DNA of 64,000 bases, taken from NCBI RefSeq assembly GCF_024223415.1, contig NZ_CP100501.1; one strand, given 5' to 3'. Source of the stretch: Escherichia coli. GTDB lineage: Bacteria; Pseudomonadota; Gammaproteobacteria; Enterobacterales; Enterobacteriaceae. The notes beneath the pieces were generated by a model. The model had not been told where the DNA came from. It searched no databases and worked only from the letters and a program-made list of their open reading frames with translations. Position numbers and translations under genes: made by a program. This document shows, in pieces, positions 3,349 through 7,865 of the stretch; within the stretch, counting starts at the first letter, position 1; every line of letters begins with the position of its first letter.

Positions 3349-3675
3349 TGTCGCGCCGGAAACGGCGCTCCCTGCACACCTGACGGTGTGTAAGGCCACT
3401 GCGCCTGATGGCGCAGTCAACCCTTCCGCCGCCACCCCTGCGGCCTGTTTCCCGCTGTGGACTTTCCGGGGGCTGAAGCGGCCACAACACGGGGCAGCCG
3501 TCCAGGGGAGAGATGTACCAGCCACAAAACTTTTTGCCGCAGGCGTCAAAAACTTTTGCGTCTGCCCCCGGACAACTGCCCCGTGCCGTGGCAGTCGCTG
3601 CCCCATCGGAAAGGTCCACTGCGGGGAGAAACCCCGAAGAAGTGGACGGCAGAAGGGGCTTTCGCCCCTCCGGGG
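3349..3675 (+). promoter_or_regulatory. Frpo/ssi-like single-strand promoter repeat, copy A
   Basis: About 330 bp GC-rich non-coding segment, near-identical to 6214-6543 (more than 80 bp identical around ccaggggagagatgtaccagccacaaaactttttgccgcaggcgtcaaaaacttttgcgtctgcccccggacaactgccccgtg); ends about 50 bp before the start codon at 3725. Confidence 0.55.
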
Positions 3676-4517: not shown

Positions 4518-4581
4518 TTAACCCTTGCCGTCTGCCTGTGCAGGCGGCAGGATACGTTCAGACATCTCACCAGGAGGAACC

Positions 4582-5460
4582 GTGAGTAAGAAGAAAAACA
4601 CCACAACGCCCACGCCGCATGATGCCGCGTTCCGGTCGTTCCTGGCGAATCCCGACGTTGCCAGGGATTTTCTGGAGTTGCATCTTCCTGCGGAGTACCG
4701 GCAGTTGTGCGACCTGTCCACCCTGAAGCTGGAACCCGCCACCTTTGTTGAGCCGGACCTGCATCAGTACGCCAGCGATATCCTCTGGAGTGTGAAAACC
4801 ACCGGGGGTGAAGACGGCTATGTTTATACGCTCATCGAGCACCAGAGCACCGAAAATCTGTACATGCCTTTTCGCATGTTACGTTACAGTGTGGCGGCGA
4901 TGCAGAGACATCTGGAGCAGCACAAAACGTTGCCACTGGTCATTCCGGTGCTGTTCTATCACGGTGAGCGCAGCCCGTACCCGTACAGCATGAACTGGCT
5001 GGACTGTTTTGAGAATCCGGCACTTGCGGCTAAAATATACACAAAGCCGTTTCCGCTGGTTGATATCACTGTCGTTGATGACAATGAAATCATGAACCAT
5101 CGCCGGATGGCCGCACTGACGCTGCTGATGAAGCATATCCGCCATCGTGACATGATGGAGCTGCTGGACAAACTCCCGCAGGTCATGGTGGAAATTTCAG
5201 ACGAGCAGGTGCGTGTTCTGATTCATTACATCGTTAACGCAGGGGACACTGTATCACCGGAATTTATGCGGGCGCTGGCCGAGCGCCTGCCGCAGCATGA
5301 GGATAAACTGATGACAATCGCAGAACGTCTTGAGCAGAAAGGTGCGCTTGAAAAAGCCCTGGCCATTGCGCGTCAGCTTCAGAAAATGGGGATGACACCT
5401 GAGCAGATTAAGCAGGCCACCGGACTTTCCGAAGCTGAACTGAAAAAAGTCATTCACTGA
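4582..5460 (+). CDS. rpn: Rpn family recombination-promoting nuclease (YhgA-like PD-(D/E)XK)
   Basis: AGGAGG SD then GTG; HDAAFRSFLANPDVARDFLELHLPAEYRQLCDLSTLKLE and FYHGERSPYPYS motifs as in E. coli RpnA-E; C-terminal tail MTIAERLEQKG...TGLSEAELKK. Confidence 0.8.
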   Translation: MSKKKNTTTPTPHDAAFRSFLANPDVARDFLELHLPAEYRQLCDLSTLKLEPATFVEPDLHQYASDILWSVKTTGGEDGYVYTLIEHQSTENLYMPFRMLRYSVAAMQRHLEQHKTLPLVIPVLFYHGERSPYPYSMNWLDCFENPALAAKIYTKPFPLVDITVVDDNEIMNHRRMAALTLLMKHIRHRDMMELLDKLPQVMVEISDEQVRVLIHYIVNAGDTVSPEFMRALAERLPQHEDKLMTIAERLEQKGALEKALAIARQLQKMGMTPEQIKQATGLSEAELKKVIH

Positions 5461-5521: not shown

Positions 5522-5728
5522 ATGACGATTGCAGAACGTCTTATACAGAAAGGTTTCGACGAGGGTTTTAAAGAAGGTTTTAAAGAAGGTTTTAAACAAG
5601 GAGCTCTTGAAGTGGCGCGGGAAATAGCCTGCCGGCTTCGGGATATAGGCTGGTCGCCGGAACGGATTCAGGAGGTCACGGGACTTTCCGGTGAAGAACT
5701 GAAAAAGCTGTTTCCTGATGAGCAGTAG
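5522..5728 (+). CDS. stand-alone small protein resembling the Rpn C-terminal domain (RpnS-like), 68 aa
   Basis: MTIAERLIQKG...ALEVAREIACRL...TGLSGEELKK aligns with the last ~49 aa of the upstream Rpn protein; contains three 12-bp tandem repeats encoding EGFK (5561-5596). Confidence 0.55.
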   Translation: MTIAERLIQKGFDEGFKEGFKEGFKQGALEVAREIACRLRDIGWSPERIQEVTGLSGEELKKLFPDEQ

Positions 5729-5758
5729 CCTGGCATTCAGCCAGGCTGTGAATCACGC

Positions 5759-6010
5759 TCACACATCCTCTGCCGTTTCCCCCAGTTCATTTTCCAGTCG
5801 CCTGATGATATCTGCCTTACGCATCCCCTGCATGTGAGGCAGCAGGTCACGGACTGAAAGTGCCTGGGTGGTCCTCCAGACGGTGACGTCCACCTGTTCC
5901 GCATTTTCCCAGGCGTGCCATGTTCTCTGCGTCACGCCAAATTCTCTGGCCGCTTTTTCGCGTGACCAGAGCATGCTTTTTCGCCAGATTCGCAGTTCCC
6001 ATCCGGTCAT
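5759..6010 (-). CDS. small helix-turn-helix DNA-binding protein (83 aa)
   Basis: AREFGVTQRTWHAWE HTH-like motif; divergent from promoter repeat B; palindromic sites in its upstream region. Confidence 0.55.
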   Translation of the reverse strand: MTGWELRIWRKSMLWSREKAAREFGVTQRTWHAWENAEQVDVTVWRTTQALSVRDLLPHMQGMRKADIIRRLENELGETAEDV

Positions 6011-6025
6011 AAAACACCTTTGAAA

Positions 6026-6111
6026 AAGTGAAAAAACTTCACTTTATTTTATCATCACAATTGCCAAATCAGCGCGATAAATAAGTGTAAAAAAGTGAAG
6101 AAATTTCACTT
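6026..6111. promoter_or_regulatory. two palindromic operator-like sites, AAGTGAA-N5-TTCACTT
   Basis: aagtgaaaaaacttcactt at 6026-6044 and aagtgaagaaatttcactt at 6093-6111, in the intergenic region between the HTH gene and promoter repeat B. Confidence 0.4.
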
Positions 6112-6213
6112 TTTTTGGTTGTAAATGTCGTGCGGTTTTCTCTGTTTTCACCTGTGCGGGAGTGGTGTGCCAGTGACCACCACATGCCATTGTTGTGCCG
6201 TCGTTTTTCTTCA

Positions 6214-6543
6214 GTCGCGCCGGATGCGGCGCTCCCTGCACACCTTACGGTGTGTAAGGCCACTGCGCCTGATGGCGCAGCTGCCTCTGCCTGTCTGCCG
6301 CCGCACTGCGGCCTGTTCTCCGCAGACGGACTTTCCGGGGGTACATACACGACCACATCCCGTTTCAGTCGTCCAGGGGAGAGATGTACCAGCCACAAAA
6401 CTTTTTGCCGCAGGCGTCAAAAACTTTTGCGTCTGCCCCCGGACAACTGCCCCGTGACGTGGTGAGCGTCCCCCGTCGGAAAGGTCCACTGCGGGGAAAT
6501 CCCCGAAGACCCGGACGGCAGAAGGAGCTTCGCTCCTCCGGGA
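6214..6543 (+). promoter_or_regulatory. Frpo/ssi-like single-strand promoter repeat, copy B
   Basis: Near-identical to 3349-3675; ends about 45 bp before the start codon at 6587. Confidence 0.55.
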
Positions 6544-6586
6544 AATGACCTGGCTGACCCGGCAGTCGTGACGATGAGGAGACAAT

Positions 6587-7438
6587 GTGATGAATCAGAC
6601 TTTACCCACTGCTGACCTGAATACTGCCGGCACGACAGATGTTATTCCGTCTGTGGCTATCGACCGCATCATCGCGCAGCGTAACGAAGGTATTGCACTG
6701 TTCATGCAGGCGATGGAATGCCTGGCGACAGCGCGCAGGATTCTGCTCGATGCTTCCGGTGACATTTTTCTCTACGGGTTTGAAGACTGCGTGACTGACT
6801 CCGTTCGATGCATGGATAAACCGGAAGAAGCGAAAAGGAATATCACCCGTCTTGCCGACCGGAAAATCTGGGACCGCCTGATGACAGATACGGGCATGTA
6901 CACCTTCATGAGTTCATGCCAGCGTGATGAGTGGAACAGCCAGCTGATGAGCGACACCTGTCCTGAAATCACCCTGGACAATGTACTGGCAACATTCCGC
7001 CATCTTAATGCCAGCAAGATGCAGACATTTGAACAGGGACTGATTGATGTCTACCGGAAATTGTCATGGGATTACAGAACCAATAATCCCTGCCGTCTGG
7101 GCAAGAAAATCATTATTGAAAACCTGCTGTACCGCTGGAGTAACGGGCGTGTGACGCTGGACTGCAGCAGACGGGAGGCACTGGATGACCTGGTACGTCC
7201 GTTTTATCTGCTGGAGGGGCGCAACGTTCCTGACTTCAGGAACAGCATCGGGGCGCAGTATGGTGAATTTCTCAGGAACGGCGACAATGTCGGTAAGTTG
7301 TTAGAAGGGGAATATTTTACGGTGCGTGGCTACCAGAAAGGGACCGTACACATTGTCTTTAAGCGTTCTGACCTTGTTGAAAAACTGAATGATATTATTG
7401 CACGGCATTATCCTGGTGCATTGCCGCCACGAGTCTGA
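6587..7438 (+). CDS. hypothetical protein (283 aa), first gene downstream of promoter repeat B
   Basis: GGAGACA SD-like then ATGATG; no catalytic motif recognised; followed by a hairpin terminator. Confidence 0.6.
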   Translation: MMNQTLPTADLNTAGTTDVIPSVAIDRIIAQRNEGIALFMQAMECLATARRILLDASGDIFLYGFEDCVTDSVRCMDKPEEAKRNITRLADRKIWDRLMTDTGMYTFMSSCQRDEWNSQLMSDTCPEITLDNVLATFRHLNASKMQTFEQGLIDVYRKLSWDYRTNNPCRLGKKIIIENLLYRWSNGRVTLDCSRREALDDLVRPFYLLEGRNVPDFRNSIGAQYGEFLRNGDNVGKLLEGEYFTVRGYQKGTVHIVFKRSDLVEKLNDIIARHYPGALPPRV

Positions 7439-7523: not shown

Positions 7524-7865
7524 TCAATTGTTGTTCATATCGATGCCATCTTTCCTGCCTGAATCTGTCTTTTTAGGTGCTGTTTTAGAGGAAGAACGGC
7601 GGGATGTTTTTTTCGATTCTGCTTCCCGAATAATGTCACGAAGTGCCTTCTCTCCTACTTCATACCCTGCATTTTTGAGCGTGTCACGAATATCTGCCAG
7701 TGTATAACCCTTTGTCCTTACCAGGACAATAATGTCATCACGAATGGCATCAAGAAAATCACGCAATGTTTTCCGTTGAGCGGTGAGATCTGGCAATTCC
7801 GATAAAGCAGCTTTTGCCAGCTGGATGTCATCATCTGAGTAAAATTTTTTAGAAGCCATTGGCAC
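7524..7865 (-). CDS. hypothetical oriT-proximal protein (about 111 aa) with basic C-terminus
   Basis: MASKKFYSDDDIQLAKAALSELPDL...; lysine/serine-rich C-terminal tail; transcribed away from oriT. Confidence 0.5.
   Translation of the reverse strand: MPMASKKFYSDDDIQLAKAALSELPDLTAQRKTLRDFLDAIRDDIIVLVRTKGYTLADIRDTLKNAGYEVGEKALRDIIREAESKKTSRRSSSKTAPKKTDSGRKDGIDMNNN

Follow-up and report, generated by a model that had tools for sequence, protein, structure and literature searches.

A small Xre-type helix-turn-helix gene and its conserved palindromic sites in the leading region of I-complex plasmids

Autorepressors of the Cro/C1 (Xre) type, such as cI and Cro of phage lambda, the 434 repressors, C2 of P22 and the C-proteins of restriction-modification systems, are small helix-turn-helix (HTH) dimers that bind 17-20 bp palindromes over their own promoter at two or more operators. 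The phage and C-protein operators are adjacent, with their centres about 20-35 bp apart, and work together with a partner gene as a genetic switch. Plasmids of the IncN and IncW groups have repressors of their own in the leading or establishment region, ArdK and KorA, with many operators (CUP promoters) placed before several establishment genes. Aca2 acts as a dimer and represses its own promoter by binding to two inverted repeats of similar sequence there, one of them over the core promoter (PMC6765145). Here, we investigated a gene for an 83-aa HTH protein and the two palindromes in front of it, which are found in a stretch of 64,000 nucleotides from Escherichia coli (NCBI RefSeq assembly GCF_024223415.1, contig NZ_CP100501.1; this whole stretch is called the window below).

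IncI-complex plasmids are major carriers of ESBL (extended-spectrum beta-lactamase) genes as well as other resistance genes. Their leading regions are now viewed as anti-defence hotspots expressed from single-stranded promoters, and how this burst is bounded and switched off is understood only in part. We hypothesized that the 83-aa protein is an Xre-type dimeric repressor, with a DNA-binding domain homologous to that of Aca2, which would bind both 19-bp palindromes of its own promoter region. Occupation of the proximal palindrome, which lies over the predicted transcription start, would keep RNA polymerase out, so that the level of the protein would stay low and limit itself; the distal palindrome would be an auxiliary operator, either a cooperative aid to the proximal site or the mark of a weaker upstream copy of the promoter and operator. 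Expression of the gene would begin only once the plasmid is double-stranded. To this combination of self-repression at the proximal site, an auxiliary distal operator and double-strand-dependent expression we assign a probability of about 0.75.

Conserved palindromes in front of the gene

The initial annotation had described a small HTH gene with two AAGTGAA-N5-TTCACTT palindromes 67 bp apart, placed between the start of the gene and a promoter repeat called repeat B, and each of these observations was correct. The 83-aa open reading frame (ORF) begins with ATG and matches Pfam HTH_31 (E 1.2e-4). The sequence and a pattern search both gave exact palindromes, AAGTGAAAAAACTTCACTT at 6026-6044 and AAGTGAAGAAATTTCACTT at 6093-6111 (67 bp from start to start), and repeat B is a real, GC-rich repeat beginning at about 6120. 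The features of the gene and of its upstream DNA are as follows.

5759-6010, minus strand: gene for the 83-aa Xre/Aca2-like HTH regulator (ORF, Pfam HTH_31, substitution rates, AlphaFold model)
6015-6020, minus strand: Shine-Dalgarno sequence AAGGTG, 4 nt ahead of the ATG, invariant between the window and locus L007
6026-6044, no strand: putative proximal operator AAGTGAA-N5-TTCACTT, centre 25 bp before the start codon, predicted to lie over the transcription start
6046-6054, minus strand: TGaTAAAAT, a predicted extended -10 element for the promoter of the HTH gene, immediately upstream of the proximal operator (sequence and anchored alignment of 26 loci)
6093-6111, no strand: putative distal operator AAGTGAA-N5-TTCACTT, 67 bp from the proximal one, a conserved island in comparison with L007

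The pattern search, allowing at most 2 mismatches, returned only these 2 sites in the 64 kb; shuffled sequences are expected to give 0.14, and none of 100 shuffles reached 2. No additional operator copy was found in the window, even with 3 mismatches or with the generic pattern AAGTG-N9-CACTT, and a closely matching IncK2/Z plasmid had none in its other 47 kb either. The arms of the distal palindrome are perfect over 11 nt (6089-6099 and 6105-6115), those of the proximal one over 8 nt. RefSeq places a 65-aa hypothetical protein on the minus strand at 6044-6241, which spans both sites and runs into the neighbouring hairpin region; it is most likely a spurious call.

The DNA upstream of each homologue was scanned in a sample of 30 genome loci, several plasmid loci and two metagenomic contigs (292 kb of fetched loci, given L numbers here). 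About 35 homologous loci, at 30-57% protein identity, were compared in this way. We found that a proximal palindrome of the form AAGTGnn-N5-nnCACTT, with its centre 22-26 bp before the start codon, was present in 22 of 37 loci, and that homologues of as little as about 35% identity had the same type of palindrome at the same position. Sites scoring at least 11/12 occurred upstream of the HTH start in 29 of the 37 loci, with about 0.6 such sites expected by shuffling over the full 292 kb; elsewhere they lay 0.8-1.1 kb upstream (L011, L014, L032, L033 and L026) or downstream (L015, L024, L028 and L029). A further perfect site, AAGTGCA-N5-TGCACTT, stands at about 10043 of L015, where the fetched locus ends and the HTH gene is 5 kb away on the upstream side; it may belong to a second copy of the module.

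The last positions of the half-site (6-7) vary between lineages (GAA, GTA, GCA, GAC and GTC), and the change is mirrored on both arms. GCA is the commonest form, GAA is confined to the IncI subgroup, L007 has a mixture of GAA and GTA, GAC occurs in L031, L034 and L036, and GTC in L006 and in the distal site of L034. We considered His32 of the recognition helix as the explanation of the GAA half-site and rejected it, because P0111 and P0112 have the same 'WH' and yet GCA sites; Gln28 is a candidate determinant only.

In the anchored alignment of 26 loci, a -10-like hexamer (TAAAAT, TAGAAT, CATAAT or TAAATT) was conserved and ended immediately 5' of the proximal palindrome. Therefore, the predicted start, near 6039, falls inside the left half-site, which would be the classical position for steric repression. 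The promoter and its start site were placed by the conservation of this element and are to be taken as predicted. A scan of 5600-6700 for sigma-70 promoters and terminators turned up a single weak promoter match, on the plus strand, and a single terminator-like site, within the HTH gene, and neither was above chance. When the upstream DNA of the window was compared with that of L007, which encodes an 85%-identical homologue from Salmonella, only two islands were conserved, namely the distal palindrome and a block from the -10 element to the ATG that covers the -10 element, the proximal palindrome, the Shine-Dalgarno sequence and the ATG; the 34-nt spacer between them was essentially randomised. 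Taken together, the comparison argues strongly for a function of the palindromes as sequence-specific elements that belong with the HTH gene family.

Two explanations that do without the HTH protein bear on the same sites. Bidirectional intrinsic terminators or insulators between the HTH gene and the single-stranded DNA (ssDNA) promoter region would account for the A runs that flank each palindrome on one side and the T runs on the other, and the RNA hairpins of the palindromes fold at -6.3 to -9.5 kcal/mol. The stems are nevertheless weak and AT-rich and absorb the U tract, and the terminator scan called neither palindrome. Moreover, the sites lie between two divergent gene starts, where nothing needs terminating, and the AAGTG/CACTT sequence is conserved across the family beyond what pairing demands, at a position fixed relative to the -10 element and the start codon. 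A conserved terminator, which the initial annotation had named as the result that would overturn its proposal, is therefore very improbable for these weak hairpins in a divergent promoter region. The HTH protein might also have no part in it, the sites binding a host factor or acting as hairpins of the transferred strand. Their GTGA-N7-TCAC core has a superficial likeness to a CRP site (GTGA...TCAC), and the palindromes stand on the transferred strand beside a hairpin-rich element. CRP sites have N6 spacing. The spacing here is N7, most relatives have GTGCA/TGCAC, and sites of this kind are found almost exclusively beside genes of the HTH family; as DNA hairpins they would be short and AT-rich. 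We regard this explanation as the least credible of all those considered.

The protein family and its relation to Aca2

The HTH gene is real and under purifying selection: in comparison with the homologue of L007, the ratio of nonsynonymous to synonymous substitution rates (dN/dS) was 0.065 at a dS of 1.27. Some database records name the protein 'YgeA', after R64 nomenclature. The 'ygeA' of the F plasmid, which was met in the literature, is a different gene, downstream of Frpo1. A search of 1.8 billion representative proteins gave just 79 matches at E<=0.001, about 40 of which were small (61-115 aa) and shared roughly 31-58% identity. The family comprises about 80 clusters at 50% identity, mainly from Enterobacterales plasmids, and a tblastn search of a plasmid collection matched 3,697 records, chiefly Enterobacterales conjugative plasmids. 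NCBIfam has no family for this protein, PHROGs gave an unnamed family only, and we found no paper describing the 83-aa protein or its palindromic sites. AcrIE9/10a, also met in the literature, is a different HTH and not this protein.

In an alignment of 33 family members (A1), the N-terminus was conserved as MTGxELRLWRKGMxWxQExAAEELGVSLRTYxxYE. At E<=0.001, Pfam HTH_31 matched 24 of these 33 members and HTH_3 matched 21. The AlphaFold (AF2) model of the window protein (mean predicted local distance difference test score, pLDDT, 90) has five helices, at residues 3-12, 17-24, 28-35, 42-60 and 65-76, and no strands, and its fold matches in Foldseek include HipB, SinR and HigA. With a profile match and a compact helical fold in which helix 2, a turn and helix 3 are modelled, the protein can be placed among Xre (Cro/C1-type) HTH proteins.

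Aca2 came first when the A1 profile was searched against all PDB sequences with hmmsearch (7ezy, E 1.2e-6; 8w35 and 7vjo, about 2e-4). An hhalign comparison with the N-terminus of Aca2 from phage ZF40 gave 93% probability and E 3.4e-7 over 45 columns; residues 1-54 of the ZF40 sequence were taken from the PDB match, and the remainder lies outside the alignment. Aca2 chains were also at the top of the Foldseek results (probability 1.0, template modelling score 0.61 on the query, E 0.11). The base-contacting Arg30 of Aca2 (PMC8633003) aligns with the conserved Arg29 of the HTH family. By profile and fold comparison, the closest solved relatives are thus the Aca2 anti-CRISPR-associated autorepressors, over the N-terminal HTH only, and the alignment ends at about residue 50. 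The proposal of the initial annotation that this gene encodes an autoregulated repressor with palindromic operators is strongly supported by comparison, as judged from the conserved position of the sites, the mirrored half-sites, a footprint that persists past saturated synonymous divergence and the Aca2 relatives.

Plasmid setting, hairpin region and distal site

About 1,940 plasmid records matched positions 5700-6600 at 95-100% identity, and most of them were conjugative plasmids from E. coli, Salmonella and Shigella. The best-matching record was an IncK2/Z, MOBP, MPF-I plasmid with the annotated order ssb, ParB-like, psiA, ardA, Rpn nuclease, HTH gene (minus strand), DUF4942, a small minus-strand gene, nikA/mobA and relaxase. 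From this gene order, the window carries the leading region of an I-complex plasmid, beside its origin of transfer (oriT). The direction of the leading genes, on the plus strand, is toward oriT. Considering the established rule for leading regions, which relates gene strand to transferred strand (PMC9849209, PMC12672017), the minus strand is therefore the one transferred. The sense strand of the HTH gene would then be the transferred strand, so that its template would exist, and transcription would be possible, only after the recipient has made the complementary strand. Cluster maps of the relatives showed a recurring order of relaxase, NikA, a small oriT-proximal gene and leading genes, and in all of them the HTH gene was oriented opposite to the leading genes.

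The HTH gene of the window is monocistronic; the gene upstream of it is divergent and the one downstream convergent, and the downstream neighbours differ among relatives (Rpn, hok and others). In the window, the downstream side holds an Rpn-family recombination-promoting nuclease gene (4525-5460, plus strand; NCBIfam RpnA, E 1.7e-98), followed by a separate 68-aa ORF (5522-5728, plus strand), with matches (E 2e-6 to 9e-6) confined to the C-terminal tail of Rpn models; in L007, too, this pair adjoins the HTH gene.

Beyond the distal site lie two further features.

6120-6586, minus strand: GC-rich, strongly hairpin-forming region, a candidate ssi/Frpo-type ssDNA promoter (context of the HTH gene; ssDNA fold, repeat copy)
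6587-7438, plus strand: DUF4942 gene, divergent neighbour and context of the HTH gene, in the leading operon nearest to oriT (Pfam DUF4942, E 2.4e-52; RefSeq starts it at the ATG at 6590)

The GC-rich repeat that begins at about 6120 has an 85%-identical copy at 3350-3674, and each copy precedes a plus-strand leading gene. The 460 nt from the distal site to the DUF4942 gene fold as ssDNA at -118 kcal/mol, with a z-score of -6.4 against shuffles, and the matching region of the Salmonella locus L003, whose homologue is 47% identical, has a z-score of -6.0. A blastn search of the window ssi region against the other loci matched only IncI relatives, and shared ssDNA-promoter-like regions were therefore judged by folding z-scores. 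In a cruder folding scan, the window, L003, L005, L009, L013, L020 and L034 reached z<=-5. The HTH module is usually found right beside a hairpin region that resembles an ssDNA promoter. For pESBL, an IncI1 plasmid, ssi1-3 are described as class 1 ssDNA promoters with mapped starts, which are active when single-stranded and silent when double-stranded (PMC12672017), and both window copies (6120-6586 and 3350-3674) are consistent with ssi/Frpo-type promoters of IncI1. A hairpin arm was also considered as a double-strand promoter toward the HTH gene and was dropped, no -35/-10 pair on either strand of the ssi region having reached 8/12.

A phage 'DNA methyltransferase' PHROG of 548 positions aligns through its N-terminal half with the DUF4942 protein (E 2.7e-18), in which no methyltransferase domain was detected and for which NCBIfam has no family. 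The next gene, beside oriT, encodes a 113-aa protein (7524-7865, minus strand), for which NCBIfam likewise has no family. It is called YggA in annotation derived from pESBL and R64, and 12 related loci have a homologue in the same position. Its RefSeq label, 'molybdopterin-guanine dinucleotide biosynthesis protein MobC', is apparently a mix-up of names.

The pESBL equivalent of the HTH gene is, by size and synteny, Hp21, a 252-bp minus-strand gene between genes of 207 bp and 849 bp, two genes before oriT (PMC4288162, Table 2), and this synteny is identical to that of the window. In the transposon sequencing (Tn-seq) of pESBL, Hp21 was non-essential, with a value of 1.00 for both maintenance and transfer (PMC4288162, Table 2). 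Therefore, the IncI protein is not holding down a lethal function and is not needed for conjugation in the laboratory. A transposon-directed insertion-site sequencing (TraDIS) paper on the I-complex does not mention the HTH gene.

A second site was found in many loci, although not in all. The initial annotation had suggested that the repressor could also gate transcription into the gene at 6587 once the plasmid is double-stranded. This part of the proposal was not supported: there is no conserved outward promoter by the distal site, several loci with a hairpin-rich, ssDNA-promoter-like region have just one operator, pESBL already has, in this intergenic region, an ssDNA promoter whose own start has been mapped (PMC12672017), and insertions in Hp21 are neutral (PMC4288162). 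In a related form, the distal operator would, besides autoregulation, block transcription of the double-stranded plasmid from the HTH side into the ssDNA-promoter region and the DUF4942 operon, as an Aca-like off switch that is produced only once the plasmid has become double-stranded. In the window, and in at least six lineages besides, the module does stand beside a region that strongly forms hairpins, always in the orientation opposite to the leading genes, and Aca2 relatives do this job for anti-CRISPR operons. After three different cassette insertions, moreover, the distal site has stayed on the hairpin side, by a terminator-like hairpin that faces the leading operon. The weak plus-strand promoter match (6028-6055) would be overlapped by the proximal site and followed by the distal one; however, it reaches 9/12 of the consensus, is not above chance (1 found, 0.5 expected) and is not conserved beyond the IncI subgroup. 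Single-operator loci speak against an off switch, as a structured upstream region is kept clearly in L009 and more weakly in L012, L015 and L016, and L039 also has a single operator. ssDNA promoters are also reported to switch off by themselves on conversion to double strands (PMC12672017), and the neutrality of Hp21 insertions counts here too. We consider an off switch unlikely. Equally doubtful is its broader version, in which the HTH-operator module would be a conserved boundary element of ssDNA (Frpo/ssi-type) promoters in MOBP/MPF-I leading regions, with an Aca2-derived repressor, which could be made only in the presence of the complementary strand, silencing or insulating the double-stranded anti-defence and establishment operon through the distal operator. 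Were that so, the module would mark, at the molecular level, the single-to-double-strand transition with which the zygotic burst ends.

Self-repression with an auxiliary distal operator leaves two roles for the second site, on which its spacing bears. The centres are 55-57 bp apart in L003, L005, L010, L013, L017-L020, L022, L025 and L038, and 64-67 bp apart in the window, L007, L008 and L034, so that the two classes differ by about one helical turn. The cooperative role is favoured because of this difference, although the fit with phase-dependent cooperation is only suggestive and many loci in the comparison are related to one another. The Buttiauxella loci L017, L018 and L019 have three operators, at -135, -79 and -24 from the HTH start, in steps of 55-56 bp. 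Single-site loci are L009, L012, L015, L016, L021, L031, L037 and L039. In L011, L014, L032, L033 and L026, a distal-type site has been retained 0.8-1.1 kb upstream, and cassettes of two genes each, three different ones in all, separate it from the HTH promoter; beside this retained site is a hairpin at which transcription toward the leading operon would end. Short-range contact to the proximal site is therefore not required for the distal one to persist. The cassettes themselves (4184-4849 in L011, and those of L014 and L032, and of L033 and L026; 0.2-1.1 kb upstream of the HTH start) resemble toxin-antitoxin modules; one includes a NadS-family HTH antitoxin-like gene, and each has its own long palindromes.

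Several observations weigh against the self-repression model that we favour. Cassette loci keep the distal site, so short-range cooperativity is not its sole role, and 55-67 bp is very short for a DNA loop. The -35 element of the HTH promoter is poor. Insertions in the pESBL homologue Hp21 had no phenotype. Finally, a monocistronic regulator that acts on itself alone has no obvious purpose, which makes a missing target probable. Should self-regulation be the only role of the protein, the result is a routine improvement of annotation. The operator can nevertheless be used as a marker to find leading-region modules, and the hypothesis is simple and testable.

Comparison with known systems

A distant relative is known from IncL/M plasmids. 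WP_004187394.1, from pCTX-M3 and pOXA-48-type plasmids, shares 31.6% identity over 92% of the query (tblastn E 7e-7) and aligns in A1; its gene sits between a hypothetical gene and a gene annotated as 'restriction endonuclease', upstream of resD-parAB. By gene order and annotation, we infer that it is Orf20 of pOXA-48, an essential protein for the maintenance of the plasmid, whose deletion is possible only with a supply in trans (PMC12365149). Both proteins belong to the same family and have a long palindrome in an upstream divergent promoter region. They differ in that orf20 lies outside the leading region, in the operon orf19-orf20-orf21...resD-parAB, with a single palindrome of other sequence and spacing, AAAATGTTCA-N4-TGAACATTTT. 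This IncL/M palindrome was found in L002 (3453-3476), L004 (3912-3935) and L042, and in L002 and L042 it lies upstream of an inserted orf19. By analogy, the behaviour of Orf20 as an essential regulator (PMC12365149) may be counted as support for a regulatory role of the window protein. The homology with Orf20-type regulators is shared by the window protein; the essentiality is not, according to the literature on Hp21 (PMC4288162) and Orf20 (PMC12365149).

The Orf20 situation raises the question of whether the HTH protein is the antidote or controller of a toxic neighbour, as a type II antitoxin or C-protein would be, with the palindromes controlling the toxic gene. The family profile weakly matches the HipB, MqsA and HigA antitoxins, and the essential IncL/M relative heads an operon with the 'restriction endonuclease'-annotated gene. 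However, the gene is monocistronic in the window and in most relatives, its downstream neighbours are convergent, unrelated and variable, and insertions in Hp21 of pESBL are tolerated. A toxic neighbour is therefore about as improbable as the terminators discussed above. In the window, the gene differs from those of type II HTH antitoxins (HigA, HipB, MqsA) in having no co-directional neighbour and weak profile matches only, and from restriction-modification C proteins in having neither an adjacent C-box pair, its sites being 67 bp apart, nor a co-directional downstream gene. Compared with the Cro/C1 autorepressors, the spacing is wider (55-67 bp) and no partner gene is evident. ArdK and KorA are alike by description, and their many operators contrast with the sites here, which are only at the regulator's own promoter.

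The best parallel is Aca2 (for example from Pectobacterium phage ZF40; PDB 7VJO, 7VJQ, 7B5J and 7EZY). The two proteins share a homologous N-terminal HTH, with about 28% identity and the motif M-T-x-x-E-L...R-(S/T)-W-x-x-W-E, and both are encoded on mobile elements beside anti-defence genes that are expressed in a burst. In contrast to Aca2 (about 115-125 aa), the window protein has 83 aa, is all-helical and lacks the C-terminal alpha/beta dimerisation domain. Its gene is monocistronic and divergent, whereas Aca2 is the last gene of an acr operon, downstream of the anti-CRISPR gene. The operators differ as well: AAGTGAA-N5-TTCACTT at a distance of 67 bp in the window, a GTTC/TTCG core and adjacent sites in Aca2. 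The Pfam model Aca2_YdiL (PF08965) matched none of the 33 family members at E<=0.001 and 2 of 33 at E<=0.1. Because the Pfam model, the C-terminal domain and the acr operon are all wanting, we did not file the 83-aa protein in the Aca2 family. By analogy, it would nevertheless work like an Aca2-type autorepressor: the inverted repeats are present and conserved, and binding and repression would follow the same scheme. The kind of system, an autoregulated Xre-type repressor with palindromic operators, is thoroughly familiar. What is new is the definition of the HTH family and of its operator consensus AAGTGnn-N5-nnCACTT, the relationship to Aca2, and the recurrent placement of the module against ssDNA-promoter-like hairpins, on the strand that can be read only after conversion.

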